From the IMG/VR virus record IMGVR_UViG_3300024298_000005: 64,000 nt of DNA, one strand, 5' to 3'. Each line of letters begins with the position of its first letter. Position 1 is the stretch's first letter. Under the pieces are notes generated by a model. It ran no database searches. It was not told where the DNA came from and was given only the letters and a program-made list of their open reading frames with translations. Of the stretch, positions 2,956-58,375 are shown piece after piece. The stretch is from a virus (Duplodnaviria; Heunggongvirae; Uroviricota; Caudoviricetes). Both the position numbers and the translations under genes were made by a program.

Positions 2956-3660
2956 TTATGATCTAATTTTTGCTAAGTTTAATTTTTCAAGAATTTTAAT
3001 ATACAACCAACCTATATCAAACTCAAACCACTTGCGACTCAGTTTAGGGTTAGCGCCATCTCCGTGGTGGTTGTTATGTAATTCTTCACCGCCAATTAAA
3101 AATCCAATAGGAAAAATATTTCTGCTATTGTCCTTGACATCATAATTACGATACCCCCACCAATGTCCTATTCCGTTCACAACTCCTGCTGCAAAGAAAG
3201 GAATCCATATCATTTGAACTCCCCACACTACTACCCCAACAAGACCAAAAAGAACAAGGTCTATGACCAACATTAAAAGAATTCCTGCTAGGGGGTGGGG
3301 AGTATAAACATTGCGTTCAATCCAATCATCTGGAGTACCAATGCCAAGTTTATCGATCATATCTCTGTCTTTACTGGCTATTCCGTAATACCGTACTCCG
3401 TTGAACACTATATTTTTAATTCCAAAAATTAAAGGGCTATGAGGATCACCTTCTTTATCTGCATATTGATGATGTTTTCTATGTATTGCTACCCATTCTT
3501 TTGTGATCATTCCTGTAGTTAACCATAACCAAAAACGCATAAAGTGTTCAACCCAAGGATGAAATTGTACTGCTCGATGTGTTTGACCTCTATGCAAATA
3601 TAGAGTAACACAGGCAATGGTAATTTGTACCATTACCAGAGTATATATAAATTCTATCAT
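2956..3660 (-). CDS. membrane fatty-acid desaturase (delta-9 / DesC-like)
   Basis: His boxes HRxxxH, HRKHHxYxDKxGDPHSP and HNNHH; hydrophobic segments. Confidence 0.8.
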   Translation of the reverse strand: MIEFIYTLVMVQITIACVTLYLHRGQTHRAVQFHPWVEHFMRFWLWLTTGMITKEWVAIHRKHHQYADKEGDPHSPLIFGIKNIVFNGVRYYGIASKDRDMIDKLGIGTPDDWIERNVYTPHPLAGILLMLVIDLVLFGLVGVVVWGVQMIWIPFFAAGVVNGIGHWWGYRNYDVKDNSRNIFPIGFLIGGEELHNNHHGDGANPKLSRKWFEFDIGWLYIKILEKLNLAKIRS

Positions 3661-4241
3661 AAAAATTTCCCTATCCTGTCTAGGATAATGTTAACTACTT
3701 GATCACTAATAACAACTTCATAATGATTTAAAGGGACTTCAATTTGTTCAAAGTCTTGTCTGTAACGCATACTCTCTAGAGTAACTACCCCGTCATTGGG
3801 CTCATGTATCCAAGGACTCTGACCAACCGTGGTAACAACCTGAGTCCAATTTGGTGGGGCAGGTAAATCTCTAGCCACTATCATTGGTTTACTCATGGTG
3901 CCTACATCTTTCATTAGCCTATTAAAAGGCAGGAAGTAACGAGCAAAATCTGCTTCTTTACTTCCACCGTAGGGTGTGCTTAAACTTACACCGCCGTGTG
4001 TAGTTTCTTTATAATGATTAGCCAAATACAAAGAATAGATACCACCTAGACTATGGCTAATAAAGAACAATCGGTCAGCATCGTCGAGTTGACCTTTCAT
4101 TTGATTAAGGTTGTGCATAAACCCGTCATCACTCTTATATTCAAGCATGATGTCGGGTTCTTCAAATGTGTCTCTAACATATTGTCTAATGTGCGTAAAA
4201 CTTGCGGCAGTTGCACTTGCACCATGAATATATACTATCAT
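3657..4241 (-). CDS. alpha/beta hydrolase (lipase/esterase-like)
   Basis: nucleophile elbow SHSLGG (GxSxG); overlaps desaturase start (ATGA). Confidence 0.55.
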   Translation of the reverse strand: MIVYIHGASATAASFTHIRQYVRDTFEEPDIMLEYKSDDGFMHNLNQMKGQLDDADRLFFISHSLGGIYSLYLANHYKETTHGGVSLSTPYGGSKEADFARYFLPFNRLMKDVGTMSKPMIVARDLPAPPNWTQVVTTVGQSPWIHEPNDGVVTLESMRYRQDFEQIEVPLNHYEVVISDQVVNIILDRIGKFL

Positions 4242-4244
4242 ACA

Positions 4245-5519
4245 TTAATGAAATTGTTCTTCCTCTGTGCTACCAACTAGTGCTTGAGTAGAAGCATCTG
4301 CTTCGATGGTTGTAGTAACACGATCAAAATATCCTGTTCCTACTTCTCTTTGATGTTTTACTGCCTCAAACCCTAATGCCTGATTTGCAAATTCTTGCTC
4401 TTGCATTTTTACAAAAGCGGTCATTCCTTCTCGGGCATATCCATGTGCTAATTCAAACATACCGTTGTTTAAATTATGGAATCCGGCAAGAGTAATAAAT
4501 TGAAACTTATAACCCATCGCACCTAATTCGCGTTGAAACTTTGCAATGGTTGCATCGTCTAGGTTCTTCTTCCAGTTAAATGATGGCGAGCAGTTGTAGG
4601 CTAACATTTTACCTGGATGGTGTTTGTGTACTTCTTCTGCAAATCTTCTTGCGAAATCAAGATCAGGTTTCCCTGTTTCACACCATACAAGATCGGCGTA
4701 GGGTGCGTAGGCAACGGCTCTTGAGACTGCTTGTTCAAATCCGTTCTTTGTACGATAAAATCCTTCAACGGTTCTTTCGCCAGTAAGGAAAGGACGATCA
4801 TTATCATCAACATCACTAGTGATAAGATCGCCTGCTTCGGCATCAGTACGGGCAATAACCAAAGTAGGCACGCCCATGACATCAGCAGCAAGACGAGCAG
4901 CAACCAATTTGTTAATAGCTTCTCTTGTTGGTACAAGTACTTTTCCTCCCATATGTCCGCATTTTTTTACTGAGGCTAACTGATCTTCAAAATGTACACC
5001 GGCTGCACCGGCTTCGATCATAGCTTTCATTAATTCAAATGCATTTAACACTCCGCCAAACCCAGCTTCGGCATCGGCAATTATTGGAGCATAAAAATCT
5101 TGTTCTTTGCCTTCGCTCCAAGCAATCTGGTCTGCTCTTCGAAATGTATTATTAATCTTACGAACTACTGACGGGACCGAGTTAGCTGGATACAAACTTT
5201 GATCAGGGTACATTTCTCCTGCTAAATTAGCATCGCCTGCTACCTGCCATCCTGATAGATAAATTGCTTTTAATCCTGCTTTAACTTGTTGTAATGCTTG
5301 CATACCTGTTAAGGCACCAAGTGTATTAATATAATCTTCTGTGTGAAGAAGTTTAAATAATTTGTTTGCTTGTTCAACAGCGAACTGGCTCGGATGTATT
5401 TTGCTGCCTTGTAGGCGTACTACATCCTCTGCTGTGTAAGGTCGTTTAATACCGTTCCATCTTGGGTTTGTGGCCCAATCTTGTTGTAGTTCTTGCTGTC
5501 TCTGTGTACGTTGGTCCAT
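4245..5519 (-). CDS. aceA: isocitrate lyase
   Basis: signature KKCGHMGGK; 424 aa, colinear with bacterial ICL. Confidence 0.9.
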
Positions 5520-5566
5520 TTGGATCCTCCTTCTGTGATCCAGTATTTATGGCCCATTAAGACCTT

Positions 5567-6229
5567 TTAGGTATCTAACTGATCAACAAAATCTAACAGC
5601 AATTTATAGTGTTTTCCTTGATGATAATGCGGTTTCATCCAACTATAATGTTCTGTATACCAATTAAGTTGACTTTCAGGGTGGCAACCTATTAATCCTA
5701 TATTATTTTGAATAATAGCCATAGGATCTCCATTGGCGTATGTTGCTATTGTTTGAAATTTTTTATTATCACCGATCAATGCGCATCCATCATAGAAATA
5801 CATGCGTTCTTGTTGTCCTAACCAATTAATATTAATTGCTTTTGCATGTGGTCTACGGGTGTCGGTGTTTGGACGAGTGATATATTGAACAGCGTCAACA
5901 TTATCTAAAATATCAAAATAGTGTTTGCCTGCCCAATATGCTCCCATACATATTCCTAGATATTTTCCACCGTCTTGAATAAACTTTTTTATACGGGTCG
6001 TATGATTACGCATTAGATAATGCCAACTTTCGCTATCTCCAAAACCTCCTGGAATAGCAATCATATCAACATCATCAAAAAAGTTATCGTCAAGATCCCA
6101 TTTAGTGAATAATTTAAATTTATGATATGGTTGAAGTGCTTCGAGAATACCGTTCCCAGACTCTATTGAACATTTAGGTTGATGCACAAATAACGCTATC
6201 TTCATGCCACGGTCTTTATAAAAGCTCAC
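5567..6229 (-). CDS. class I glutamine amidotransferase-like protein
   Basis: IPGGFG ... GICMG nucleophile-elbow-like motif. Confidence 0.45.
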   Translation of the reverse strand: MSFYKDRGMKIALFVHQPKCSIESGNGILEALQPYHKFKLFTKWDLDDNFFDDVDMIAIPGGFGDSESWHYLMRNHTTRIKKFIQDGGKYLGICMGAYWAGKHYFDILDNVDAVQYITRPNTDTRRPHAKAININWLGQQERMYFYDGCALIGDNKKFQTIATYANGDPMAIIQNNIGLIGCHPESQLNWYTEHYSWMKPHYHQGKHYKLLLDFVDQLDT

Positions 6230-16598: not shown

Positions 16599-17801
16599 AT
16601 GATAAACAAAGAACCTTTTAAAAAACTATTGCAGGATCTTAAAGCATCAGGAAAATATCGTGTTTTTAATGATATTGTTAGAGAAGCTGGAAAATTTCCT
16701 ACAGCTATTTGGTACGGGCCTTATAACATTAAGAACATAGTAAACTGGTGTTCAAACGATTATTTGGGCATGGGCCAGCATAAAGTTGTGCTAGATGCTA
16801 TGCACACCGCTCTAGATCACACAGGATCTGGTTCAGGAGGCACTCGCAATATTGGCGGGTCTAGTCACTATCATAAAGCCTTAGAACACGAGCTTGCCAC
16901 TCTGCATAATAAACAGAGCAGTTTATTATTCAGCTCTGCATATGTGGCCAACGAATGGACTCTTATTGCTCTAAGCAAGATTGTGCCTAATATTCATTTT
17001 ATCAGCGATAGTAAAAATCACAATAGTTTAATTATAGGAATGAGTCATAGTCGAGCTCCTAAACAAATATTTGAACACAATAACCTAGAAGATTTAGAAA
17101 GCAAATTAGTTGCTGCTACACTTGCTGGCCATACTCCTTGTATTGTTTTTGAAAGTGTATATTCTATGGATGGTGATGTTGGAGACATAAGAGGAATTTG
17201 TAATCTAGCAGACAAATACAATGCTATCACTTACATTGACGAAGTACATGCGGTAGGGCTATACGGTGAGCGCGGCGCTGGTAAATTAGAAGAGTTAGGG
17301 TTCCAGGACCGAGTTGACATAGTTAACGGAACGCTTGGTAAAGCGTATGGTGTCCAAGGTGGATATATTGCTGCCGATGCAGATGTAATTGATGCTATCC
17401 GATCAGTGGCTGCAGGGTTCATTTTTACTACGTCTATGAGCCCTGTTACCTGTGCCGGTGCGTTGGCTGCAATCAAATACTTAAAAGAGCATAACGAAGT
17501 TCGAGAGAAACATCAAGAACGTGCTCGTAAATTAAGACATAGATTAAAGAAAGCAGGAATTCCTGTTATGGAATGTTCCACCACTCATATTATTCCTGTG
17601 CTTGTTGGAGATGCTAAGAAGTGTAAAGCAATGAGCGATATGCTGTTAAATGATCACAACATCTATGTTCAACCAATTAACTATCCTACGGTTGATGTAG
17701 GTACTGAAAGATTACGATTTGCACCCACTCCATATCACGACGACGGAATGATTGAAGATTTAGTCATTGCTCTTACTGCGGTGTTTAATAAATTTGATTA
17801 G
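16599..17801 (+). CDS. hemA: 5-aminolevulinate synthase (Shemin pathway, PLP-dependent)
   Basis: NYLGMGQHK ... [10 protein letters not shown] ... TLGKAYG PLP-lysine motif; colinear with ALAS. Confidence 0.85.
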
Positions 17802-18654
17802 TCTTTAAGTAATTAAAATATTCTTTAATACCTTGATCTATATTAAAGAATCCTTTAACATCAACACCAGCATCCTCTAAAAACTGGACTGATGCACAGG
17901 TGTATTCTTGATATTGTTCTTTAAGATCATTTGGCATGTCAATAGATATTTTTGTGCCATATCCAATCTCTTGTAAGCAAAGATCTGCAACTCGATCAAA
18001 ACTTACAGCATTACCAGTACCAAGGTCGTAGAGACCTTCTTTATAATTGTTAATAAAATGATGTACGGTTTTAGCCACATCTTCGACATATATAAAATCT
18101 CTTAGATAATTTTCTGAGTTGTTGAATATTTTTAAAATTAAATTGTTTTCTAATTGACGGTACCAATGAAAGGGCGTACTAGCCATACGACCTTTGTGAT
18201 ATTCATTTGGTCCGTAGACGTTGAATAATCGAAGTATTACACCATTAGTTATTTCTTGTTCGCAGGTAAGTTTACTAAAAGCATAGTGGTTAACAGGACC
18301 GTTTCCGTTGCCGTATACTGCTGCGCTTGACATGAATATAAACTTTTTTCCGTAATGCTTACAAAGGTCGTGCCATCTTCTTGTACTAACAATATTGGAT
18401 TCGTAGATGCTAGACCAATCTCTTTCTAGTGTACTTGCATTTGCTCCGCAATGGATAACACAATCGAACGCAGATAGATTGTCTATAATTTCTTTAGTAG
18501 AGTATAGTCCTTTATATTTTTTGCCAATTAAATTTTTATATTGATCTCCATAAGGCATATCATCAAAGAGGTAAACATCTTCGATTCCTTGTTTATTAAG
18601 ATAACCTAAAATATAACTTCCAATAAAGCCTGCTGCTCCTGTGAGTATAATCAT
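17785..18654 (-). CDS. hldD: ADP-L-glycero-D-manno-heptose 6-epimerase
   Basis: [13 protein letters not shown] Rossmann start, ...SSAAVYG; close to E. coli HldD over N-terminal 120 aa; start set at internal Met giving ATGA overlap. Confidence 0.75.
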
Positions 18655-19427
18655 AGTATTTCCTCTAATGTTGGTGCATAACATCCAACGTGCTGTACCG
18701 TAATTGATGATGCATTGTTGGCAAACTCTAATGCTTGCATCATATTTTCTGTTTCTAAAAATTTGTAGGTCAATGCAGCTAAGAAAGTATCGCCTGCTCC
18801 TGTTACATCAACCAATGGAACTTTTTTAGGGGTTAGTTTATTATCCAAATATTGAACCCCATCTTCGCCAAGAGTAACAATTAACCATTTGCTGTTTGGT
18901 AATGTAATAGCCTTGCTTTTTTCTAATTCATTTATTTTTACATAACAGCCTTCGAACCTAACAAGGTCTGTTTTTTTAGTGTCAATGAAAATAGGTCCTT
19001 TGTATTCTTTTCTAATTTCTTCAACAAGTTCGTAGGTAATGGTTCCTTTGTTATAATCGCTGATTACTATTGCATCATAAAAATTAGGAATAGGAGTATC
19101 AAACCTAATAGGATCACTTTTCTTATCTCTATCAATTCGAACTATCTGTTGTTTACTGCGTCGATCGATAAGTCTTTCTTTTTCGCTAGTTTCCCCGTAG
19201 AGGAAATTTACATTGCACCCAAGTGCTTCTAAATTTTCTCTAACGTTGTCGGCCATACCCGCTTTGTAAGTATGTCCATGTGGATTGAACACAGGTATTG
19301 GAGCTTCAGGACTAATCCTATTCACACTTCCGTATGTGTAAATGTCTGTACCTTTATCCCCTATCAATAATATCCTGTATTGTTTTGGAAGTTGAGTGAT
19401 TTGTTCGTTCATAAAATAATATTTCAT
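18651..19427 (-). CDS. PfkB-family sugar kinase (HldE kinase-domain-like, heptose-7-P kinase candidate)
   Basis: PfkB signature DVTGAGDTFLAAL; GGGAGA RBS before Met at 19427. Confidence 0.65.
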   Translation of the reverse strand: MKYYFMNEQITQLPKQYRILLIGDKGTDIYTYGSVNRISPEAPIPVFNPHGHTYKAGMADNVRENLEALGCNVNFLYGETSEKERLIDRRSKQQIVRIDRDKKSDPIRFDTPIPNFYDAIVISDYNKGTITYELVEEIRKEYKGPIFIDTKKTDLVRFEGCYVKINELEKSKAITLPNSKWLIVTLGEDGVQYLDNKLTPKKVPLVDVTGAGDTFLAALTYKFLETENMMQALEFANNASSITVQHVGCYAPTLEEIL

Positions 19428-19752
19428 TGCAGTATTCTTCTCCCACAATCGATCTATTGCGGTAGTCACTGCCTTTTACCATAGTTACAGGCCTAATGCT
19501 TTTAATTATTGAGATAAGTTCTTCTTCAGTATTGAAAATCTTAACATCATCTACAGATTTTAAATTCTGTAACATAAGCATACGATCCCATTGATCGTTA
19601 ATAGGGCGGCCCGGCCCTTTAAGAAAATTTACACGAGCATCGCTGTCAATACAAACTAGCAAACGATCGCCAACAGACTTTGCATAGTTTAATAATTCTA
19701 TGTGTCCTCTATGCAATATATCAAAAGTTCCATTGACTATTATTTGTTTCAT
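19354..19752 (-). CDS. cytidylyltransferase-like nucleotidyltransferase (HldE domain-II-like, heptose-1-P adenylyltransferase candidate)
   Basis: GTFDILHRGH (H/T-x-G-H) motif. Confidence 0.7.
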   Translation of the reverse strand: MKQIIVNGTFDILHRGHIELLNYAKSVGDRLLVCIDSDARVNFLKGPGRPINDQWDRMLMLQNLKSVDDVKIFNTEEELISIIKSIRPVTMVKGSDYRNRSIVGEEYCNEILFYERTNHSTSKTIQDIIDRG

Positions 19753-20372
19753 GGTAACGAGTTAACAAAACTTGCAAGATCGTCAAATATAATAGTTCGA
19801 CGCTTTAATTCTCTGTAAGTGAATTTGTTTAATTCTTTTTCTGTTTCAAGGCCATAACCTGTTCTAACTAACACAGGTTTTGAACCCATCTTAACTGCTG
19901 CTTTAAGATCTTTAATCTTATCGCCTACATAATAACCTTGATTAAATTTAATATCTGGAATTTCTTTTTCACATCTCTTAAACATTCCAGTATTTGGTTT
20001 TGCAAACGGATCATCTTTACGTGAGCTAGCAGAATAATATATTGCATCGATACTAGAACATCCTGCCTTGCCAAACAAATCTAGCATATGTGTGTGCAAT
20101 GTATCTACTTGTTCTTGTGTATAGATACCCTTTTCAATTCCCCCTTGATCTGTAATGATTACAATCTTATAACCTTTACGTCTAAGTTCAGCAACTGCAT
20201 CAACGCTGCCAGGAATTGGATCAAAATCTTCAACACGATAACAATAGGTACCTAGATCGCGATTAATAACTCCGTCACGATCTAAGCCTATTACACACTT
20301 TGTTCTAAACTCGCCACCAGTCCAGGTAATCTTAGGCTGGTTGTTCTGTGGCTGGTTGTTCTGTTGTTGCAC
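19749..20372 (-). CDS. gmhB: D,D-heptose 1,7-bisphosphate phosphatase (HAD-IIIA)
   Basis: GLDRDGVIN motif and HAD fold spacing. Confidence 0.7.
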   Translation of the reverse strand: MQQQNNQPQNNQPKITWTGGEFRTKCVIGLDRDGVINRDLGTYCYRVEDFDPIPGSVDAVAELRRKGYKIVIITDQGGIEKGIYTQEQVDTLHTHMLDLFGKAGCSSIDAIYYSASSRKDDPFAKPNTGMFKRCEKEIPDIKFNQGYYVGDKIKDLKAAVKMGSKPVLVRTGYGLETEKELNKFTYRELKRRTIIFDDLASFVNSLP

Positions 20373-20733
20373 TTTGGCTGTCTCCGGGAATGATTCGATA
20401 GTTATCCTCTACACTATCTGCTGTACTAACTTCAAATATCATTGAGTTTGGTACAAGAGCAATAAGTTGATGAGGCATCATAGGAGGGTTATGCCAAGTA
20501 TCACCTTCATTTAAGAATTTTTCGTGATAGGTTGCTGTTTTTGTGTCGCACCAAACCAATTTAAATTTTCCTGCGTTTACAAACCATGTTTCGTCTTTTT
20601 CTTTATGAAAGTGCATACTAAACTTAGCACCTGCTTTTTCAAAGACCATAATCTTACCGCAGTACTTGTCGTTGGTTGCCCAAATAATTTCGCAACCCCA
20701 TCCTTTATCTACTTTACCTTCTTGTCTTGTCAT
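20332..20733 (-). CDS. cupin-fold protein (sugar isomerase/epimerase-like)
   Basis: small beta-barrel-type sequence with His-rich motifs; within sugar-nucleotide cluster. Confidence 0.4.
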   Translation of the reverse strand: MTRQEGKVDKGWGCEIIWATNDKYCGKIMVFEKAGAKFSMHFHKEKDETWFVNAGKFKLVWCDTKTATYHEKFLNEGDTWHNPPMMPHQLIALVPNSMIFEVSTADSVEDNYRIIPGDSQSATTEQPATEQPA

Positions 20734-21320
20734 TATCGTTTCTCGATGATTTTGTCAACGAGTCCATATTCAAGAGCTTCTTGCGCTGACATAAACTTAT
20801 CACGTTCCATGTCGCGAGCAAACTCTTCGTAGGTCTTACCTTTTGAATTATGCTTAACATAAATCTCAGTAAGATTCTTTTTCATTTTTAAAATCTCTTC
20901 TGCTTGAATTTGAATATCTGTAGCTTGACCACGGGCGCCGCCGCTGGGTTGATGAATCATGTGACGAGCGTTTGGCAACATATAACGTTTACCTTCTGCT
21001 CCTGCTTGTGCTAACAAACTTCCCATTGAACAAGCCTGTCCCATAACGTAGGTAGCCACAGGGCATTTAATAAACTGCATTGTGTCATAAATGCTCATGC
21101 CTGCTGTAACAACACCACCTGGGCTATTAATAAACAGACTAATTTCTTTATCTGGATTTTCGCTTTCTAAAAATAATAGTTGTGCAACTACAATATTTGC
21201 CATGTGGTCTTCAACTTCACCTGTTAACATGACAATACGCTCTTTAAGTAATCTGCTATAGATATCGTATGCACGTTCGCCTTTTGATGTAGACTCAACT
21301 ACCATTGGTACTAAACTCAT
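20733..21320 (-). CDS. clpP: ATP-dependent Clp protease proteolytic subunit
   Basis: Ser (GQACSMGS), His (HQPSGG), Asp triad spacing; 195 aa. Confidence 0.85.
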
Positions 21321-22256
21321 TTATGCTTCCTTAATGTTAGAAATATTTTTTAGTTTAAGCTCTTCCATTAGGTCCGTCAACCATCGTAATACCTTTACAT
21401 TTGGTTTATAACCCAGTTCGGCTAATCTTGTAATATCTGCTTCTGTATTTGCTACTGCTCCAACACGTGGCGGAACAACTATTTGTCTATGACTAATAAT
21501 GTCTGCCAATTGTTTGATACTTACAGATTGGCCTGATCCTAAATTGAATACGTCTCCGTGTTCACCGTACTCTAGAACAATCATAAGACCTTTGATAACA
21601 TCACTAACATGAACAAAGTCTCTGCGTTGATCACCACCGCCGTGTAACAACAACGGTTGATTGGTTTCCCAGGCAGAAATAAACTTTGGAATCACTAATG
21701 CGTTTTTGCCAAAGTCCATAAAGTCTCCGTACATGGTAAAAGGTCTTATTATTATTAATTCTGTATCCCCAACAAGACTCTGCACGTGAAGTGCCCATTC
21801 TGCAGACATCTTGCTCACAGCATAAGGATTGGTTGGCATCAATTGGCTATCTTCTCGTTGTTTGATTGTACCGTTGTTTCCATACACTGAGCTAGAACTT
21901 ATATAAACAAATTTCCTTACACCCATAGTTTGGCATAAACTAAAAAATTTATGTGTTGCTGTTATGTTTACATTATAGTATTCAGCGTACTCATTCCAAC
22001 TAGGATCAATCCTAGATCGATTGGCCATATGAACAACAACATCAACTTCTTTAAGATGTTCTTTTAAAACTGGAATATCTTCTGTTATATCGCAATAATG
22101 TATTTGATTATTGTGCGACCACCCTTCTCGAACACTTTGGTCCCATAAGAACGGAGGTTTATCAATCAATACCGTTTCGTCAAACATTTGTTTTAAGAAT
22201 GGGGTAGCATTGCGTCCAAGAAACCCATTTGCTCCAGTGATCATTAATTTGCTCAT
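21321..22256 (-). CDS. NAD-dependent sugar epimerase/dehydratase (SDR family)
   Basis: ITGANGFLG Rossmann motif, YAVSK catalytic YxxxK. Confidence 0.75.
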   Translation of the reverse strand: MSKLMITGANGFLGRNATPFLKQMFDETVLIDKPPFLWDQSVREGWSHNNQIHYCDITEDIPVLKEHLKEVDVVVHMANRSRIDPSWNEYAEYYNVNITATHKFFSLCQTMGVRKFVYISSSSVYGNNGTIKQREDSQLMPTNPYAVSKMSAEWALHVQSLVGDTELIIIRPFTMYGDFMDFGKNALVIPKFISAWETNQPLLLHGGGDQRRDFVHVSDVIKGLMIVLEYGEHGDVFNLGSGQSVSIKQLADIISHRQIVVPPRVGAVANTEADITRLAELGYKPNVKVLRWLTDLMEELKLKNISNIKEA

Positions 22257-22331: not shown

Positions 22332-22871
22332 TTGTTAACCAAAAGTAAAAAAATGAGTACCCTACTATTAAATGCAGACATGCAACCAATTAGCCTACTT
22401 CCGCTATCTTGTGTAGATTGGCAGGAAGCCATTCGCTATATGGTTTTGGACAAGGCCGAAGTCCTTGAGTGGTATGACGACTGGATTGTTCATTCAGCTC
22501 GTTGGGAAACTAAAGTTCCTGCTGTACTAATGCTCAAGGAATATCAAAAGCCTAAGAACACAATGCGCTTATCTAAGCGTAATGTATTCTTGCGAGACCA
22601 ATATACTTGCCAATACTGCGGTACAGAAGTAACAGATCAAACTGCTACTTTGGACCATGTACATCCTGTGTCAAAAGGAGGTAAGACCACTTGGGAAAAC
22701 TCTACAACTGCATGTAAGCCTTGCAACTATAAAAAGGCTGCTCATGTAGGTAAGATGAAACCAAAATTGTCTCCATACAAACCCCACTTTTGGGATCTAG
22801 TTGAAAAGAGAAAACTAAAAGGTTTTCACTTACATCATCCAAGCTGGGCATCTTATTTGGGTGTTGAATGA
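22332..22871 (+). CDS. HNH endonuclease
   Basis: CxxC ... LDHVHPVSKGG ... N ... CxxCN HNH motif. Confidence 0.7.
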   Translation: MLTKSKKMSTLLLNADMQPISLLPLSCVDWQEAIRYMVLDKAEVLEWYDDWIVHSARWETKVPAVLMLKEYQKPKNTMRLSKRNVFLRDQYTCQYCGTEVTDQTATLDHVHPVSKGGKTTWENSTTACKPCNYKKAAHVGKMKPKLSPYKPHFWDLVEKRKLKGFHLHHPSWASYLGVE

Positions 22872-23458
22872 CTCCGATCAGTCTATCTCCAGCGGTTGTA
22901 TGGAAAGGCCATTATTCTGGTGACCTAAGTGAGTTGGTTAAACGAGCTTCTCATAAACTCAAAACTGGATCACAACTTAATAACAGAGTAGAACGGGACG
23001 GAGGGATAAGTTCTTCCTCCGATCCCGATGCGCCTCACTACTGGGAAGAATCAAACGATTTTCTTGTTTGGGCGGGACCAATGATAGAAAAAGTTTGGGC
23101 TGAATGGCAACTTCCAAAATGTGACTTATCAATAAGCTCTAGTTGGGTTAACCTTCATCCTTTTAACGGATGGACTGACGAACACACTCACGGTAGTGTT
23201 CCGTTGGTCTGCGTTTTATATGTTGAACAACCTGCCAACGGTGGAAACTTAGAAATTTTTGATCCAATGTTTCATATTTGGAGCGGAAGTCTTAGAGTTG
23301 AGCTTCCTTGGAAAGAAGTTGAAGTCCAAACGGGAGATGTATTAATGTTCCCAGGTTGGATGCTACATAAAACTCAAAAAAACAACTCAAACGATGATCG
23401 GATCGTTATGAGTATAAACATTAGCCCAAATCCTCACACATTCCATAGAACATTTTAG
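22868..23458 (+). CDS. 2OG-Fe(II) oxygenase superfamily protein (TIGR02466-like)
   Basis: C-terminal LMFPGWMLHK motif shared with paralogs at 29352, 33094, 55829. Confidence 0.6.
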   Translation: MTPISLSPAVVWKGHYSGDLSELVKRASHKLKTGSQLNNRVERDGGISSSSDPDAPHYWEESNDFLVWAGPMIEKVWAEWQLPKCDLSISSSWVNLHPFNGWTDEHTHGSVPLVCVLYVEQPANGGNLEIFDPMFHIWSGSLRVELPWKEVEVQTGDVLMFPGWMLHKTQKNNSNDDRIVMSINISPNPHTFHRTF

Positions 23459-28989: not shown

Positions 28990-29359
28990 ACTAAGTTGGA
29001 GTGTACTAGATCCAAAACCGGTTCTATTGTATATTAGAAATTCTGACGAATATATATGTTATTGGAACGGCATTGCTATGACACATACTATGGCTATGAA
29101 TATGGCTTTAGAACCGTTTGGTATCTTTGCTACTCCAGAAATGAAAACATCTATGGAACAGGACTATCGAAGAATCTATTATGCAGGAGGTTTCGATACT
29201 CGTGCTTGGGATTTTAAAGTTTCAGAAAGCCCAATATATCCATATGTAAAACGTTTAATGGCTGAACATATTAAAAAGACCATTGCTGAACAAAAACGTC
29301 CTATTGCAGAAGTATTAGGATGGTTTGATTATAGTAGGGCTCGAACAGATAATGATTGA
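28979..29359 (+). CDS. hypothetical protein
   Basis: GGAGA RBS before internal Met. Confidence 0.4.
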   Translation: MRSELSWSVLDPKPVLLYIRNSDEYICYWNGIAMTHTMAMNMALEPFGIFATPEMKTSMEQDYRRIYYAGGFDTRAWDFKVSESPIYPYVKRLMAEHIKKTIAEQKRPIAEVLGWFDYSRARTDND

Positions 29360-29948
29360 AGATATATTTGCTATTTCAATATATAGAACAAAATATAAAG
29401 ATAACATTGTTGAATTACAAAACAATGTTATCCCCCTTCTTGAGCCTGTCTTTGCTGAAACAATTAAAGACAATCAAGGTTCAATGAGGAACGGTGGATT
29501 ATGCTCTTATAATGTTGTACGCAATTTACAATCAATGCCCGAACTACAAGGGTTATTAGAATTTTTAACAGAACATGTTAATGCATATTGGCAACATTTA
29601 AATTATTCAGGAAAACCTGCTATTGTTGAGATGTGGGCCAATCGATATGCTCCAGGGTCATTTATCGATACGCACAATCATAGTCCAGTTCCGTTAACAT
29701 CAAGTTTTTATCTTAAGAAAAATAAAGATTCGGGCAATCTTGTTTTTGAACACCCAAATGAAGTAATACTTAAACATCAACCATATTCATTTAACAATAG
29801 AAGTTCATATCACCAGTTGTTTGATTACGAAGTGCCTGTTGAAGAAGGAGACCTTGTTATCTTTCCTTCATATCTAAGACACAAGACTATGCCCAATCAA
29901 TCTACAGAAGATAGAATTATTATTGGTACAAACATATTCGCTGTATGA
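29352..29948 (+). CDS. 2OG-Fe(II) oxygenase superfamily protein (TIGR02466-like)
   Basis: HNH..., C-terminal VIFPSYLRHKT motif; paralog of 22868, 33094, 55829. Confidence 0.65.
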   Translation: MIEDIFAISIYRTKYKDNIVELQNNVIPLLEPVFAETIKDNQGSMRNGGLCSYNVVRNLQSMPELQGLLEFLTEHVNAYWQHLNYSGKPAIVEMWANRYAPGSFIDTHNHSPVPLTSSFYLKKNKDSGNLVFEHPNEVILKHQPYSFNNRSSYHQLFDYEVPVEEGDLVIFPSYLRHKTMPNQSTEDRIIIGTNIFAV

Positions 29949-33093: not shown

Positions 33094-33675
33094 TTAGGCT
33101 AGATTAAATGCTATGCTGACTCGCTGTTTATCTGTGCGGTTAACTCCTACCTTGTGTGTTAACCAACTAGGAAACATGATCAAAGTTCCTGTTTTTGGCT
33201 GTATATGATGGCTCTGACGTTGTGGCAGTAGATCTGCGGGCCATAGTCTAAGATGATCTACAGGGTTAGGGCTTTTAAAGGTTAAATTACCCTCATCACC
33301 ATCTGCTTGATAATAGTAGCAGCCCGAAATAGCTCGTTCCGGATGTACATGATCGTACATGAAGTTTTTGGGCTCGTAGATATTGACCCAGCTGTCTGTG
33401 AGCCTAAAGGGTCTAACTGGATATTTGATAAAATTACACCAATCACGTAGACTTTCAAATATAGAGTCAGTTAGGTGGTTCATGCCCAGGTCCACAATAT
33501 CGTTGGAGCCGTCAAATTTAAAGCTGGAACTAACTTCGTCGTCCCAGGGATTATCCTTGACTTCCAACTGGTCTAATGCTTGTTTGATCTGTGCCTGTAC
33601 TCGATCTAGTTCTTCGCCCTCTAGTTCACGTACATAAACAGGAGCATAAAATAAGTGTAGTTTTTGTGATTTCAT
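33094..33675 (-). CDS. 2OG-Fe(II) oxygenase superfamily protein (TIGR02466-like)
   Basis: HVHPE ... IMFPSWLTHKV; start set at Met giving ATGA overlap with upstream gene. Confidence 0.65.
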   Translation of the reverse strand: MKSQKLHLFYAPVYVRELEGEELDRVQAQIKQALDQLEVKDNPWDDEVSSSFKFDGSNDIVDLGMNHLTDSIFESLRDWCNFIKYPVRPFRLTDSWVNIYEPKNFMYDHVHPERAISGCYYYQADGDEGNLTFKSPNPVDHLRLWPADLLPQRQSHHIQPKTGTLIMFPSWLTHKVGVNRTDKQRVSIAFNLA

Positions 33676-34283
33676 TTGAATACCAAGTAAGTTGAAAGAA
33701 TGTATTTGGTTTGTCCGTCTTGGGGCATAAGCCCTGCATGAGGAAAATGCCAAGTGGGTGTGAATATACAGAGCCGACCTCGACGAGCAGCCACGGTCAT
33801 GTTTTCCAAAGGAAACTCTGTGCCAGCGTCCGAATCGTTGAGATAAAACAAACAGGCCAAAAATCTAGATGAAGTTTCTAGGGTAGTATTATCAGCGTGT
33901 AGTTTAAACTCATGACGACCATTGGGTCTATAGCATTTGATTCTAAAACCCTCTAGGGCAAAGTCATAGGGCAAGATGTTTAGAGTGTCCCAATCACGCT
34001 TATAGTCACTGACCAAGGGTATGACCCTAGCTGAGAGTTGATCGCAGGTCTCAGTCCAATCATAGGCCCAGTGGCTGCTTTTCTTATAAAGATCCCAGGG
34101 ATTACGAGCCTGAGGGTGGCGTGTAGAGTGTAGATCTAATTCAATTAATTTGGCCCACTCGCCCGGACGTTCCTTATGGAATCGAGCGCAGAGTTCAAAG
34201 GCCTTGACCATTTCATCGCAGAATTCTGGGTCAAGGGCAGCGTCAATGACCCGTATGTAGTTTTTGTCGTAGACTATTTCCAT
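33672..34283 (-). CDS. 2OG-Fe(II) oxygenase (prolyl-4-hydroxylase / PhyH-like)
   Basis: HADN (HxD) ... HFPHAG second His; jelly-roll spacing. Confidence 0.6.
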   Translation of the reverse strand: MEIVYDKNYIRVIDAALDPEFCDEMVKAFELCARFHKERPGEWAKLIELDLHSTRHPQARNPWDLYKKSSHWAYDWTETCDQLSARVIPLVSDYKRDWDTLNILPYDFALEGFRIKCYRPNGRHEFKLHADNTTLETSSRFLACLFYLNDSDAGTEFPLENMTVAARRGRLCIFTPTWHFPHAGLMPQDGQTKYILSTYLVFK

Positions 34284-37438: not shown

Positions 37439-37515
37439 CACGCATTAGCTCAGTTGGATAGAGCAACAGCCTTCTAAGCTGTGGGTCAGGGGTTCGAATC
37501 CCTTATGCGTGGCCA
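37439..37515 (+). tRNA. tRNA-Arg (anticodon UCU), CCA encoded
   Basis: cloverleaf folded by hand: acceptor CACGCAT/ATGCGTG, D GCTC/GAGC, anticodon loop CUUCUAA, T-loop TTCGAAT. Confidence 0.8.
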
Positions 37516-37519
37516 GTTA

Positions 37520-37597
<78 letters not shown>

Positions 37598-44032: not shown

Positions 44033-45241
44033 ATGTCTACAAACATCGTTGATAAATTAACTACTGCACGGGTCGGTCTATTGCTCAAAGCACCGTTCTT
44101 TGGCAACATGGCAACTCGTATGCGTTTAGTCTGTGCTGACGACTGGTGCCCTACTGCGGCGACCAATGGCCGTGACTTTTATTACAACACAAAGTTCATC
44201 GAAAAACTTTCAGAGAAAAAACTAGAGTTCCTGTTTGGTCACGAGATCCTTCACTGCGTGTTTGATCACTTTGGCCGTGTAGGTAGCCGTGATCGTCAAC
44301 TTTCTAACATCGCACAGGACTTTGCTGTAAACCAAATCCTTGTAGACGAGCGTATTGGTGAGAAGATCACTGAGGTTAAGATCTGTTATGATCCTAAGTT
44401 CCGTGGACTTGCTTGGGAAGAAATCTACGATATTCTGTATGAAAAAGCAGAGAAGATTCCTATGGATCAACTGATGAAAGAGTTGGGCGATCTGTTGGAC
44501 GAGCACATTAAGGAACAAGAGGGTGCTGGCTCAGAAGATGACAAGACCAAAGACGGTAAGAGCAAGCCTAGCCTTAGCAAAGAAGAAGCAGAACGCATCA
44601 AGCAAGAGATCAAAGAAGCAATGATCCAAAGTGCCGCGGCCGCTGGTGCAGGCAAGACTCCTGCAGGCATTATGCGTATGATTAAGTCTATGACTGAGCC
44701 TAAGATGGACTGGCGTCAGTTGGTGCAACAAGAGATCCAAAGCATTGTTCGCAACGACTACTCCTTCCAGCGTGTTAATCGCAAGAGTATGCACTCAGGC
44801 GCAATCTTGCCAGGCATGAAAGAAGCAACTACCATTGACGTGGCTATTGCTGTTGACATGAGTGGTAGTATTGGTGAAGAAGATGCCAGCACATTCCTTT
44901 CGGAGATCAAAGGCATCATGGACCAATACGAGGACTTCAAGATCAACCTGTGGTGCTTTGACACAGAGATCTATAACCCACAAGAGATCACTCATGACAA
45001 CTCACATGACTTGCTTGAGTATGAACCTCAAGGTGGCGGTGGCACAGACTTTGATGTCAACTTTACCTACATGGAAGAGAATGACATTCGCCCTAAGAAG
45101 TTCATTATGTTCACAGACGGCTATCCCTGTGGTAGTTGGGGTCCTGAGGACTACTGCGACACAATCTTTATCGTTAAGGGCAATACACAAGCAGAGGCGC
45201 CCTTTGGTCAAACGGTGATCTACGAAAAAGAGGCGGGCTAG
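44033..45241 (+). CDS. VWA-domain protein with N-terminal HExxH metallopeptidase-like domain (DUF2201/CobT-like partner of MoxR ATPase)
   Basis: FGHEILHCVFDH (HExxH); MIDAS DMSGSIG; TAAGGAGAGCG RBS. Confidence 0.7.
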   Translation: MSTNIVDKLTTARVGLLLKAPFFGNMATRMRLVCADDWCPTAATNGRDFYYNTKFIEKLSEKKLEFLFGHEILHCVFDHFGRVGSRDRQLSNIAQDFAVNQILVDERIGEKITEVKICYDPKFRGLAWEEIYDILYEKAEKIPMDQLMKELGDLLDEHIKEQEGAGSEDDKTKDGKSKPSLSKEEAERIKQEIKEAMIQSAAAAGAGKTPAGIMRMIKSMTEPKMDWRQLVQQEIQSIVRNDYSFQRVNRKSMHSGAILPGMKEATTIDVAIAVDMSGSIGEEDASTFLSEIKGIMDQYEDFKINLWCFDTEIYNPQEITHDNSHDLLEYEPQGGGGTDFDVNFTYMEENDIRPKKFIMFTDGYPCGSWGPEDYCDTIFIVKGNTQAEAPFGQTVIYEKEAG

Positions 45242-55151: not shown

Positions 55152-55832
55152 ATGTTTGATTCAATTACAACTTATCGTTCAGCTGAAGCTATCAATAGTG
55201 CCATGGCCAGTGTTTATAAACACATGGGTCTAGCAGTATTGACCAGTATGATCGTTTCATTGTTTGTAGGAACCAATCCTGCACTATTGGCCTTTTTCTT
55301 TACAGGCTTTATAAAATGGATTGTTATATTTGCACCGCTGGTAGCTATTATTGCTCTTAGTATGAATATGGATTCTATGAGCAAGGGCACAGCACAACTA
55401 GCTCTACATGGCTTTGCCGCGCTAATGGGCTTGAGCTTTGCTACTATCTTTGCTGTCTACACTATGGGCAGTATTTTTTCAGCTTTTATGAGTGCCGCAG
55501 TATTGTTTGGCGTTATGAGCTTTTATGGTTATTTTACCAAGAAGAGTTTAGATAGCCTAGGCCAGTTTATGTTCATAGGCCTAATTGCCATTATCATTGC
55601 TAGTCTAATCAATATCTTTATTGGCAGCACCTTAATGCAAATGGTTATTTCGGCTATTGCTGTTATTATCTTTCTAGGCCTTACTGCCTACGACACACAA
55701 AAGATTCGAGAAATGGTCAGCTATGATACAGCGGAAGGCAATGCTGAAATTGTTGGCGCACTAACTCTGTATCTTGATTTTATTAATCTTTTCCTAAATC
55801 TTCTACAACTATTTGGCGGTAGAAAAGATTGA
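55152..55832 (+). CDS. Bax-inhibitor-1/YccA-family membrane protein
   Basis: seven hydrophobic segments; C-terminal YLDFINLFLNLLQLFGG like YccA tail. Confidence 0.65.
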   Translation: MFDSITTYRSAEAINSAMASVYKHMGLAVLTSMIVSLFVGTNPALLAFFFTGFIKWIVIFAPLVAIIALSMNMDSMSKGTAQLALHGFAALMGLSFATIFAVYTMGSIFSAFMSAAVLFGVMSFYGYFTKKSLDSLGQFMFIGLIAIIIASLINIFIGSTLMQMVISAIAVIIFLGLTAYDTQKIREMVSYDTAEGNAEIVGALTLYLDFINLFLNLLQLFGGRKD

Positions 55833-56392
55833 ACGAATATGTTTTATTCCCTACAATAGTTAGGGAATACGATTTCAGCAAGGACCCAGATTTTCATGTC
55901 CTTGCTGATTTTGTTTCTAAACAAAAAACAGAACCACATAGACTAGTAGGCTGGGCAGAAAGCAGTTACGGTGTAGGCCGTAGTCTTTTTGATAATTTTA
56001 TTCTCAAAGGCATACGACAAAAACTACAGGCCGCTGTTGATGCATATATCATTGAACTTGGTATAGCACCAGTTAAAATAACCAATAGTTGGTTTAATAA
56101 ACTAGGTCAACATCAACGTGTAGAAACTCATAGACATGAATTAAGTGTTGTGTCAGGAGCATTCTATGTTCATGCAGATCCCGGTAGTGTGGGACTAAAA
56201 TTATTCAGTCCTTTGGCACAACTTCGTATGTACGAACAGATTGTAAATCACAATGCTGTTAATGCTAATTTTATTGAAATGGAATGTTGTACAGGTCAGC
56301 TAATTTTATTTCCTAGCTGGATAGAACACGGAACCGATAATAATCAAACCGATAGTAGAATTACGGTTAGTTTTAATACAGAATATTGTTAG
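55829..56392 (+). CDS. 2OG-Fe(II) oxygenase superfamily protein (TIGR02466-like)
   Basis: HRHE ... ILFPSWIEHG; paralog. Confidence 0.65.
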   Translation: MNEYVLFPTIVREYDFSKDPDFHVLADFVSKQKTEPHRLVGWAESSYGVGRSLFDNFILKGIRQKLQAAVDAYIIELGIAPVKITNSWFNKLGQHQRVETHRHELSVVSGAFYVHADPGSVGLKLFSPLAQLRMYEQIVNHNAVNANFIEMECCTGQLILFPSWIEHGTDNNQTDSRITVSFNTEYC

Positions 56393-58129: not shown

Positions 58130-58375
58130 CTATTTAGCCCATCTTAGGTGATACTCTACTTCTATTTTAGAATCGTAAAATTCTACTACAAGTGCAAGAT
58201 TTTCAGCTATTTTTTCAACAACTAATTGACACTTTGTTTTGGGCTGAGCTAAAATCCATTCTAAATGATCTACACCAATCAGCTTTTGTATTTTAGGCCA
58301 ATCTATATCAATGTTGCCAACAACTTCAATATCTGGGGACGACCACTCTGCTAGAGTAACTTTAGTATGTTTCAT
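58130..58375 (-). CDS. hypothetical protein
   Basis: 81-aa ORF. Confidence 0.4.
   Translation of the reverse strand: MKHTKVTLAEWSSPDIEVVGNIDIDWPKIQKLIGVDHLEWILAQPKTKCQLVVEKIAENLALVVEFYDSKIEVEYHLRWAK

Follow-up and report, generated by a model that had tools for sequence, protein, structure and literature searches.

Positions 17785–22256 of the window, by which we mean the whole 64-kb stretch of viral DNA analysed, form one tightly packed minus-strand operon. On balance, the operon appears to serve the synthesis of ADP-heptose, with a metal cupin as the candidate first-step isomerase. ADP-heptose is the donor of a bacterial cell-wall sugar, and an operon predicted to make it is here carried by a large aquatic phage, probably a jumbo myophage. 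This kind of cassette has already been annotated in cyanophages; the new point is the cupin, which apparently replaces the first pathway enzyme.

Seven minus-strand ORFs were found at the coordinates given in an initial annotation of this DNA, and the motifs quoted there are all present in the translations. The features, in operon order, are as follows.

21321..22256, minus strand: SDR1, extended short-chain dehydrogenase, nucleotide-sugar 4-epimerase-like, 311 aa (Pfam Epimerase, E 6e-47)
20733..21320, minus strand: ClpP, bacterial-type Clp protease proteolytic subunit, 195 aa (NF001368)
20332..20733, minus strand: metal-binding single-domain cupin, 133 aa (Cupin_1/Cupin_2)
19749..20372, minus strand: GmhB-like HAD phosphatase (NF006506, DRDGxIN)
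19354..19752, minus strand: putative monodomain heptose-1-phosphate nucleotidyltransferase (NT), HldC/HldE-domain-II-like, 132 aa (TIGR02199)
19354..19412, minus strand: dual-coding NT/kinase overlap, 59 nt (start 19412) or 74 nt (start 19427)
18651..19427, minus strand: putative compact PfkB heptose-7-phosphate 1-kinase, HldA/HldE-domain-I-like, 253–258 aa (TIGR02198)
17785..18654, minus strand: HldD-like ADP-glyceromanno-heptose 6-epimerase, 289 aa (TIGR02197)

Neighbouring genes overlap by 1–59 nt. The low-complexity N-terminus of the phosphatase overlaps the disordered cupin tail by 41 nt, the kinase and HldD-like genes meet in an ATGA start/stop overlap, and the 3′ end of the HldD-like gene overlaps a convergent ALAS gene by 17 nt. 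Three starts are possible for the kinase (19412, 19427 and 19469; stop side 18651), and the HldD-like ORF extends up to 18684. Chance cannot account for the family matches of the operon proteins (E 1e-15 to 1e-98). The operon belongs to a variable island in which metabolic genes of host type (ALAS, ClpP and isocitrate lyase) are found.

ClpP and SDR1 are accessory neighbours, and ClpP stands outside the sugar pathway. ClpP scored 326.6 bits on NF001368 (cut-off 249) and matched Pfam CLP_protease at E 2e-84, with a readable Ser-His-Asp context (GQACSMGS, MIHQP, ERDKFMS). The two genes had been counted with the cassette in the initial annotation; they are lineage-specific neighbours and not core members. 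Of 80 related viral loci, 4 have ClpP beside the cassette, and only a few (L050/51, L063 and L078) have an SDR1 homologue there. SDR1 had been described as an epimerase/dehydratase, of which the first half stood: the protein is 4-epimerase-like, with the UDP-GlcA 4-epimerases MoeE5 (6kv9, 3e-34) and 6zl6 as its closest solved relatives, but it carries SSSSVYG and YAVSK without the dehydratase TDE motif. Its scores were 111 bits for GalE and 104 each for RmlB and HldD, with no specific NCBIfam equivalog.

Heptose-pathway families and the overlapping kinase and NT genes

For the kinase, NT, phosphatase and epimerase, the heptose-pathway family was in each case the top scorer by a wide margin, with all four scores under the curated NCBIfam equivalog cut-offs. 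The kinase scored 141 bits on TIGR02198 (rfaE domain I; below the cut-off of 345) versus 59 on ribokinase, and NT scored 114.8 on TIGR02199 (rfaE domain II; below 181.5) versus 52.9 on TagD (glycerol-3-P cytidylyltransferase). The values were 137.5 on NF006506 (below 178) versus 82 on histidinol phosphatase for the phosphatase, and 233 on TIGR02197 (below 274.6) versus 57 on GalE for the epimerase. In the clade comparison that the initial annotation had proposed, the kinase and NT favoured the rfaE domains over ribokinase and glycerol-3-P cytidylyltransferase. The closest solved structure to the kinase was 4e84 (4e-16; ribokinase 3e-8), which we take to be HldA of Burkholderia, and that to NT was 5x9q (5e-19, ahead of TagD), presumably HldC of Burkholderia.

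The window proteins retain the residues on which catalysis by HldE and HldD depends. The kinase keeps RISPEAPIPV, SDYNKG and DVTGAGDT. Compared with E. coli HldE, it has lost segments of about 30 and 17 residues, deletions that recur in Prochlorococcus phage P-SSM2 and locus L017. NT is 38% identical to E. coli HldE domain II, with NGTFDILHRGH, LKGPGRPIN, VKGSDY and HSTS aligned; it has His, not Arg, before S-T-S and thus lacks the STTR5 promiscuity motif (PMC11573728). The phosphatase keeps DRDGxIN and, over 163 residues, shares 37% identity with E. coli GmhB, whose Cys/His-rich stretch (YYCPHH...VCDCRKP) gives way in the phage protein to a shorter segment free of Cys and His. The HldD-like protein and E. 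coli HldD share 37% identity; S116, Y140, K144 and the HKGxMAS (K178) segment are conserved. These results support the predicted heptose-pathway roles of the four proteins.

The overlap of NT and kinase had been given as 74 nt, a value that holds for the kinase ATG at 19427; with the ATG at 19412, used by metagenome gene callers, it is 59 nt. With either start, NT terminates within the conserved kinase segment RILLIGDKG. Of the related loci in which NT precedes the kinase, 74 of 74 have the kinase in the +1 frame with respect to NT; in these loci the NT ORF reaches 11–38 nt into the conserved first kinase strand, and the overlap measured to the nearest ATG is 44–92 nt. The overlapping frames would probably couple the synthesis of both proteins. 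Regarding the initial description as a rearranged, unfused HldE, the genes are indeed separate and in reversed order, but unfused kinase and NT genes are ordinary, as the stand-alone chains 4e84 and 5x9q show, and the overlapping NT-then-kinase order has already been annotated in cyanomyophages such as P-SSM2 and S-CAM1, so the arrangement is not novel. The monodomain nucleotidyltransferase type was described by Tang et al. 2024 (PMC11573728).

Distribution and family of the cupin

We surveyed 80 IMG/VR loci with a kinase 44–64% identical to that of the window. Of these, 76 contained NT, 75 the cupin and 64 HldD; neither SIS GmhA nor GT9 was found in any of the 80. The 55 fully flanked loci (≥3 kb on both sides) contained NT in 55, the cupin in 54, HldD in 47, a phosphatase in 20, and SIS GmhA or GT9 in none; in one of them, L083, the cupin is missing and NT, kinase and HldD are present. 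The cupin stays in the cassette through many different gene orders. The order hldE(fused)-hldD-cupin-gmhB occurs on a symbiont-like bacterial contig, which also has ankyrin and T4SS genes. No recognisable phosphatase lies within 10 kb in most related loci, so these phages do depend on the host, or on genes farther away, for one step or more, and this reliance weakens the argument that the pathway must be complete.

SIS-type GmhA and GT9, which the initial annotation had not seen in the 64-kb window, were likewise not found there by Pfam on all called genes combined with tblastn (E. coli GmhA, and WaaC and WaaF, respectively; E<0.1). A heptose acceptor is not encoded near the operon. The host of the window phage may well carry GmhA.

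Among GenBank phages, the cupin occurred in 35 records, all cyanophage or marine virus, and the kinase in 37, 33 of them cyanophage or marine virus; the two share essentially the same records. SIS GmhA homologues occurred in 13 other phage records, none with the cupin or kinase. Cyanobacterial LPS lacks heptose (PMC4390846), so a GmhA supplied by the host cannot be taken for granted in these phages.

The cupin matched Cupin_1/Cupin_2 in Pfam, with weak matches to Lyx_isomer and MannoseP_isomer. Across 42 homologues at 36–92% identity, K10, W12, G13, E15, Y24, K27, S39, H43, K46, E48, G55, H88, E101, S103, T104, D110 and R113 are invariant, as is the H/H/E/H metal set of the family. K46-x-E48 corresponds to K86-x-E88, the catalytic pair in D-lyxose isomerase (PMC8378251). 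Besides generic cupin models, the commonest Pfam matches of the 42 members were MannoseP_isomer (37) and Lyx_isomer (36). Alignment of the family with E. coli ManC residues 364–424 using hhalign gave a probability of 93.9% (E 1.6e-7), confined to the N-terminal half. The window cupin alone scored 16 bits on PF01050 (cut-off 23.6), and a 40%-identical actinomycete homologue and bridging bacterial homologues exceed the threshold. The family also carries the PMI-II motifs (K/R)(G/P)WG, SxH/QxHxxK/RxExW and EVS...EDxYR. Sequence comparison relates the family to the cupin domain of type II phosphomannose isomerase (PMI). The AF2 model of the cupin has a core pLDDT >90. Fold searches returned generic cupins, with D-lyxose/mannose isomerase, cupin PGI and a 112-aa PMI among them; oxalate decarboxylase, quercetinase, KdgF and CapF ranked no lower than these sugar isomerases.

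Proposed pathway and alternative readings

In the proposed pathway, the metal cupin would isomerise sedoheptulose-7-P to D-glycero-D-manno-heptose-7-P in place of the unrelated SIS GmhA, a heptose counterpart of the conversion of fructose-6-P to mannose-6-P by type II PMI relatives. The compact kinase would then phosphorylate C1, the GmhB-like phosphatase would remove the 7-phosphate, the monodomain NT would add AMP, and the HldD-like SDR would epimerise C6′′. Homology and conserved residues support these last four steps as predicted. That the cupin replaces GmhA as sedoheptulose-7-phosphate isomerase is the reading we favour, with modest confidence, because of its gene linkage, its distribution complementary to SIS GmhA and its remote PMI-II homology; the same evidence strengthens the earlier suggestion that the cupin may substitute for GmhA.

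We consider it unlikely, though worth weighing, that the cupin is a WbuC/CapF-like tailoring epimerase acting on a nucleotide-heptose keto-intermediate with the HldD-like SDR or SDR1, host GmhA performing the isomerisation. The WbuC/CapF-type cupin model matches the family about as well as the isomerase models (41 of 42 members, best E 2e-7). However, a tailoring enzyme is expected to vary more than the core, whereas the cupin is found more consistently than HldD (54 versus 47 of the 55 loci) and occurs without a nearby HldD in several related loci. The PMI-II motifs of the family and the heptose-free LPS of cyanophage hosts (PMC4390846) also argue against tailoring.

Activation of a non-heptose sugar, for example with the cupin supplying mannose-6-P from fructose-6-P for NDP-β-mannose, seems improbable. 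Every family score is under its equivalog cut-off, the shortened lid region of the phage kinases could alter substrate size, and the nearest functional families of the cupin act on hexoses or pentoses; against this, four independent enzymes agree on the heptose pathway. Moreover, an HldD-type 6-epimerase requires the C6 secondary alcohol found only in heptose, and the HldD-like protein has every catalytic residue and the preference for TIGR02197 over GalE given above. It is hardly credible that the genes are host-derived, hitch-hiking remnants with no role in infection, as their location in an island of host-like genes might suggest, given intact ORFs with catalytic residues retained, an overlap frame conserved in 74/74 loci, relatives of the kinase in >560 viral stretches and >4500 metagenome clusters (90% identity) of the cupin.

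Comparison with known systems

The predicted ADP-heptose operon shares its kinase, phosphatase, adenylyltransferase and 6-epimerase families with the E. coli-type pathway (identities of 28%, 37%, 38% and 37%, respectively). It differs in having the cupin in place of SIS GmhA, an unfused, reversed and overlapping kinase and NT with the kinase about 47 residues shorter, a GmhB-like protein without the Cys/His-rich stretch, and no linked GT9 heptosyltransferase in the window. The stand-alone bacterial kinase and NT (4e84, 5x9q) are likewise separate chains and the best solved-structure matches, but the phage proteins are shorter; we know of no conserved +1-frame overlap between such bacterial genes.

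The PMI-II cupin domain (PF01050, the C-terminus of ManC/AlgA-type GMP-PMI) and the small cupin sugar isomerases (D-lyxose/mannose isomerase 7nzo/3kmh, T. kodakarensis PMI 7zvy, cupin PGI 1j3p) share with the phage cupin the fold, the metal ligands and the K-x-E pair (PMC8378251) and, as proposed, the conversion of a 2-ketose to a manno-configured aldose; the (K/R)(G/P)WG and EVS..EDxYR motifs are common to PMI-II and the phage cupin. Unlike PMI-II, the phage cupin is free-standing (118–133 aa), has a 5-residue deletion in the C-terminal motif and His instead of Gln at the first ligand, and would act on a C7 sugar phosphate. Compared with the CapF C-terminal cupin and WbuC (TIGR04366), it scores 26.8 bits, below the cut-off of 42, and is linked mainly to the kinase and NT, not to an SDR.

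The window phage gave no megablast match and is not a close relative of the cyanophages with a similar cassette. The cyanomyophage "LPS gene" cassette (Prochlorococcus phage P-SSM2 gp309-313; Synechococcus phages S-CAM1, S-SSM7 and Sf-CH8) differs in lacking ClpP and SDR1, in having a carbamoyltransferase directly upstream, and in encoding a 114-aa mini-HAD phosphatase instead of the GmhB type. Cyanophage ORFs annotated as "phosphoheptose isomerase" were rejected as such, being small HAD phosphatases, and the cyanophage cupin, gp312 in P-SSM2, is labelled "cysteine dioxygenase" or "nucleotidyltransferase" in these genomes. In both systems, NT is followed by an overlapping PfkB kinase (41–43% identical to that of the window; cyanophage overlaps of 41 and 80 nt), the cupin is shared (40% identity), an HldD-like SDR is present, and the cassette lies near tail-fibre or virion structural genes.

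Gene content of the operon and family membership of its enzymes

Seven consecutive minus-strand ORFs at 17785–22256 formed one packed operon, in the region where the initial annotation had described a run of ADP-heptose genes. Metagenome gene callers called the identical gene set on many near-identical contigs, and neighboring ORFs overlapped by 0 to 59 nt. The genes are as follows:

21321–22256, minus, SDR1 (311 aa)
20733–21320, minus, ClpP (195 aa)
20332–20733, minus, cupin (133 aa)
19749–20372, minus, GmhB-like HAD phosphatase (207 aa)
19354–19752, minus, cytidylyltransferase-fold nucleotidyltransferase, NT (132 aa)
18651–19412 as called, minus, PfkB kinase (253 aa; other possible starts at 19427 and 19469)
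17785–18654, minus, HldD-like SDR (289 aa)
19354–19412, minus, overlap of NT and kinase (kinase start at 19412)

Simple scans for promoters and terminators at the operon gave nothing exceeding the shuffled expectation. SDR1 was closest to UDP-glucuronate/UDP-hexose 4-epimerases (MoeE5, 6zl6), with no specific assignment. The ClpP was complete and of the bacterial type (NF001368, 326.6 bits, above the cut-off of 249; TIGR00493, 304.0 bits, marginally under the cut-off of 308.6), and the contexts of its Ser-His-Asp triad were all seen in the window. A kinase search matched more than 560 viral stretches, from which we fetched 80 IMG/VR loci with kinases 44–64% identical to that of the window. Because ClpP adjoined the cassette in just 4 of these 80 loci, we rejected it as a functional partner of the heptose genes.

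The operon is flanked by a divergent HNH endonuclease gene at its 5′ end and a convergent 5-aminolevulinate synthase gene at its 3′ end. The latter gene and HldD face each other in the window lineage, and 4 of the 80 loci showed the same arrangement. It is one of several unusual host-like metabolic genes close to the operon:

16599–17801, plus, full 5-aminolevulinate synthase (TIGR01821, 572 bits, above cut-off)
5567–6229, minus, GATase/BPL_N protein
4245–5519, minus, isocitrate lyase
2956–3660, minus, fatty-acid desaturase

The top NCBIfam match was a heptose-pathway model for all four enzymes, by a wide margin in each case. The kinase scored 141.1 bits on TIGR02198 (rfaE domain I; cut-off 345), and ribokinase followed at 59, 82 bits fewer. 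The NT scored 114.8 bits on TIGR02199 (rfaE domain II; cut-off 181.5) and 52.9 on the TagD/glycerol-3-phosphate cytidylyltransferase model. The phosphatase scored 137.5 bits on the GmhB model NF006506 (cut-off 178), ahead of the histidinol phosphatase domain at 82, and 89.2 on TIGR00213 (cut-off 149.6); the HldD-like SDR scored 233.1 bits on TIGR02197 (cut-off 274.6), with GalE next at 56.6. All of these heptose-model scores missed their equivalog cut-offs, and the four proteins are therefore divergent relatives rather than textbook orthologues. Among solved structures, the kinase matched HldA (4e84) at 4e-16 with ribokinase behind at 3e-8, and the NT matched 5x9q, a Burkholderia HldC, at 5e-19 with TagD behind at 5e-12. 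The kinase and NT did not group with the ribokinase or TagD clades, the outcome that the initial annotation had named as refuting the heptose reading, and that reading is supported.

The kinase has a PfkB fold with GAGD, and the alignment with E. coli HldE showed the RISPEAPVPV, SDYNKG, and DVTGAGDT segments in common. The residues G205-A-G-D208, S34-P-E36, and S118-D-Y-x-K-G123 were invariant among 11 kinases, and the phage enzyme is compact, with approximately 47 residues fewer than E. coli HldE domain I in the alignment. It would phosphorylate D-glycero-D-manno-heptose-7-phosphate at O1 (β). Relative to E. coli, the NT kept NGxFDILHxGH (GTFDILHRGH in the window), LKGPGRPIN, and HSTS, with STS instead of STT as the C-terminal motif and no Arg at the STTR5 position (motif position according to PMC11573728). 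The phosphatase was 37% identical to E. coli GmhB over 163 residues (E 1e-26) and contained the HAD-IIIA nucleophile motif GLDRDGVIN. The Cys/His-rich insertion of E. coli GmhB, a Zn-binding loop, was absent from the phage protein: YYCPHH...VCDCRKP aligned to YYSASS-RKDDPFAKP with an 8-residue gap and neither Cys nor His. With regard to the HldD-like SDR, GxxGxxG, S116, Y140-x3-K144, and K178 (HKGxMAS) were all aligned and conserved with E. coli HldD. We consider it very probable that the operon makes an ADP-heptose, and a non-heptose product is improbable.

The NT stop codon falls within GGG GAT AAA, the kinase codons for G-D-K of the conserved RILLIGDKG strand. In every one of the 74 related loci that share the gene order, the kinase frame was +1 relative to the NT, the NT ORF reached 11–38 nt into the conserved kinase core, and the overlap counted to the nearest ATG was 44–92 nt. 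Judged from the sequences, the junction is an old, conserved case of dual coding. A programmed frameshift fusing NT to kinase was considered and not favored: the offset was +1 in every locus, but no slippery-site evidence was found. Translational coupling is the simplest reading of the overlap, which may also allow such a fusion.

The cupin as a candidate sedoheptulose-7-phosphate isomerase

The initial annotation saw no SIS-type GmhA, and our searches agreed: no window gene had a SIS Pfam match, and tblastn with E. coli GmhA gave nothing in the window, in the fetched relative loci L001–L026, or in the 80 viral loci. The 80 loci contained NT (76), cupin (75), HldD-like SDR (64), GmhB-like phosphatase (16), carbamoyltransferase (13), and mini-HAD (8); SIS GmhA and GT9 occurred in none of them. 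When only the 55 loci flanked by 3 kb or more on both sides were counted, all 55 had NT, 54 the cupin, 47 HldD, and 20 a phosphatase of any type. Since the majority of loci had no phosphatase nearby, some pathway steps are outsourced. One fully flanked locus, L083, was without a cupin.

The cupin remained a member of the cassette across at least six gene orders. It stood beside a fused HldE of canonical order in a T4-like phage contig (L017), and an hldE(fused)-hldD-cupin-gmhB operon was found at 5882–8946 of L019, a MAG contig labelled Comchoanobacterales and symbiont-like, with a cupin 62% identical to the phage cupin. The L019 contig carries ankyrin-repeat and type IV secretion (TraI) genes and is therefore bacterial; its cassette suggests that the cupin version of the pathway has been exchanged between phage and bacterium. 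Among GenBank phages, the cupin was found in 35 records (all cyanophages or marine viruses) and the kinase in 37 (33 such), in essentially identical sets of records; SIS GmhA homologues were found in 13 other phage records, none of which was among the cupin or kinase records.

Over 42 members (36–92% identity), the residues K10, W12, G13, E15, Y24, K27, S39, H43, K46, E48, G55, H88, E101, S103, T104, D110, and R113 were invariant. Leaving aside the models for cupins in general, the most frequent Pfam matches were to PF01050, the type II mannose-6-phosphate isomerase cupin (37 of the 42 members at E<1), and to D-lyxose/mannose isomerase (36). The family profile aligned with residues 364–424 of E. 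coli ManC, the PMI cupin domain, with shared motifs (hhalign probability 93.9%, E 1.6e-7). The window cupin scored 16.3 bits on PF01050, under the gathering threshold of 23.6, and an actinomycete homologue (L022) 40% identical to it passed the threshold with 35.7 bits; actinomycete and Chloroflexi homologues of 37–40% identity bridge the cupin family and the PF01050 family. Moreover, the cupin pair K46-x-E48 corresponds to K86-x-E88, the catalytic pair of D-lyxose isomerase (PMC8378251).

Other cupin functions were matched as well. A WbuC/CapF-type model matched 41 of the 42 members, about as often as PF01050. The structure prediction proposed in the initial annotation gave an AF2 model with a mean pLDDT of 78 (core >90), with equally good matches to sugar isomerases and to oxalate decarboxylase, quercetinase, KdgF, and CapF. 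In sequence searches of the PDB, the cupin reached nothing beyond oxalate decarboxylases and further cupins of a generic kind. A tailoring epimerase is a rather unlikely alternative to the isomerase.

Returning to the isomerase, the different fold rules out GmhA membership, and the cupin could only be an analogue: a putative aldose-ketose isomerase acting on a sugar phosphate, sedoheptulose-7-phosphate. The conversion of sedoheptulose-7-phosphate to D-glycero-D-manno-heptose-7-phosphate is the C7 counterpart of that of fructose-6-phosphate to mannose-6-phosphate, which places the proposed activity a short way from what the relatives catalyse. We lean, with reserve, toward assigning the cupin as the sedoheptulose-7-phosphate isomerase on its linkage, complementary distribution, and remote homology; the reserve reflects the sub-threshold PF01050 score, the WbuC/CapF matches, the generic fold hits, the missing phosphatases, and L083. 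The searchable literature contained no report of a cupin-type phosphoheptose isomerase; as far as that literature shows, a cupin standing in for GmhA is an undescribed putative variant of the pathway, and one with good support.

Possible use of the heptose and probable identity of the phage

Pfam matches of every called gene and tblastn with E. coli WaaC and WaaF revealed no GT9 in the window, in accordance with the initial annotation, and the precomputed Pfam matches included no glycosyltransferase of any kind. When Pfam matches were tallied for 146 ORFs lying up to 3.5 kb from the cassette at 24 loci, no glycosyltransferase recurred (GT2, 2 of 146; GT9, 0). E. coli WaaC matched 7 phage records, none of them from a cassette-bearing phage. 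Heptose is absent from cyanobacterial LPS (PMC4390846). Because the cyanophage hosts are without heptose and no heptosyltransferase is linked, the ADP-heptose may be used outside the classical LPS inner core, for instance to heptosylate virion or tail-fibre proteins or as a free nucleotide-sugar effector. The operon lies near large virion structural or tail-fibre genes in the window and also in P-SSM2 and S-CAM1, a position that is compatible with virion glycosylation and proves nothing.

The only recurrent extra enzyme at the cassette was a NodU/NolO-type carbamoyltransferase (the 13 IMG/VR loci), an indication that a carbamoylated heptose may be made in some lineages. Representative genes in fetched relative loci and the window gene are as follows:

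L001 (cyanophage P-SSM2), 3802–5604, NodU/NolO-type carbamoyltransferase
L003, 3985–5667, NodU/NolO-type carbamoyltransferase
L020, 9392–11125, NodU/NolO-type carbamoyltransferase
Window, 60417–61361, Carbam_trans_N gene only, 40 kb off the cassette

The DnaB/gp41-like helicase of the window (58362–59807, minus) was closest to those of PA5oct and Atu_ph07 (approximately 50% identity), and several related cassette-bearing contigs were 320–365 kb long. These results indicate that the window is probably DNA of a jumbo phage, one common in aquatic metagenomes; its proteins were found in 69–98 sample blocks. Between 33000 and 52000, the G+C content was 0.45–0.49 against 0.36–0.40 elsewhere, and this segment contained small plus-strand ORFs without Pfam matches. 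Further features of the window are as follows:

37439–37515 and 37520–37597, tRNA-Arg(TCT) and tRNA-Met, in the G+C-richer segment
42790–43875 and 44033–45241, MoxR AAA and DUF2201/VWA pair, in the G+C-richer segment
28270–28989, plus, product matching PF26128 'Gad2' in a near-identical contig (Pfam name from a Gabija anti-defence protein)
22868–23458, 29325–29948, 33094–33753, 33672–34283, 55829–56392, and 59804–60424, paralogous 2OG-Fe(II) oxygenase genes (at least six)

A 2OG-Fe(II) oxygenase gene also occurred within the heptose cassette of L017 (7297–7989).

ADP-heptose is an essential LPS precursor and strongly stimulates innate immunity, and the pathway to it is a drug target; to our knowledge GmhA has been treated so far as the sole entry enzyme to it. 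We tentatively propose, as a joint claim that is less likely than not, that the cupin represents an unrecognised non-homologous class of sedoheptulose-7-phosphate isomerase displacing GmhA in hundreds of aquatic phage cassettes and at least one bacterial symbiont, and that the ADP-heptose is used outside the classical LPS inner core. If true, the cupin isomerase would be a non-orthologous displacement of GmhA, and genome-based heptose prediction would change, as GmhA searches would miss cupin-type producers. It would also sharpen the question, raised in PMC11573728, of why viruses make NDP-heptoses, especially viruses of hosts with a heptose-free envelope.

Comparison with cyanophage cassettes

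Megablast gave no close DNA match of the region among GenBank phages, and the window kinase was 39–43% identical to genes of approximately 30 T4-like cyanophages. In P-SSM2 and S-CAM1 the NT overlaps the kinase that follows it, by 41 and 80 nt, respectively, and next come a 114-aa ORF, the cupin, and the HldD-like SDR; the cupin of this type is 40% identical to that of the window. The cyanophage ORFs annotated as 'phosphoheptose isomerase' are 107–116-aa HAD phosphatases, with DxDGT and matches to the TIGR01689 capsule-biosynthesis phosphatase (E 1e-8) and the BT0820 HAD family:

L001, 6716–7060, P-SSM2 gp311, mislabelled 'phosphoheptose isomerase' with DxDGT HAD motif
L003, 6752–7075, the same
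L002, 8636–8986, the same

A homologue of this protein was sought in the window and none was there; the cyanophage protein is itself a phosphatase. The cupin next to the mini-HAD is mislabelled 'cysteine dioxygenase' or 'nucleotidyltransferase', and the assignment proposed here would put right an annotation error of long standing in the genomes of cyanophages.

Among cyanophages and pelagimyophages, heptose genes have already been catalogued as host-like 'LPS' genes (PMC7378029, PMC7029224), and Tang et al. described viral heptose-pathway enzymes, monodomain nucleotidyltransferases included (summary in PMC11573728). The rearranged, unfused HldE domains of the initial annotation are real and not new: separate kinase and NT genes are ordinary in bacteria, and the NT-kinase order occurs in P-SSM2 and S-CAM1, so that the HldA and HldC structures and the cyanophage layout together make this a known arrangement. 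The gene set of the operon belongs to a kind already annotated in cyanophages, and the cupin is the part without an existing explanation.
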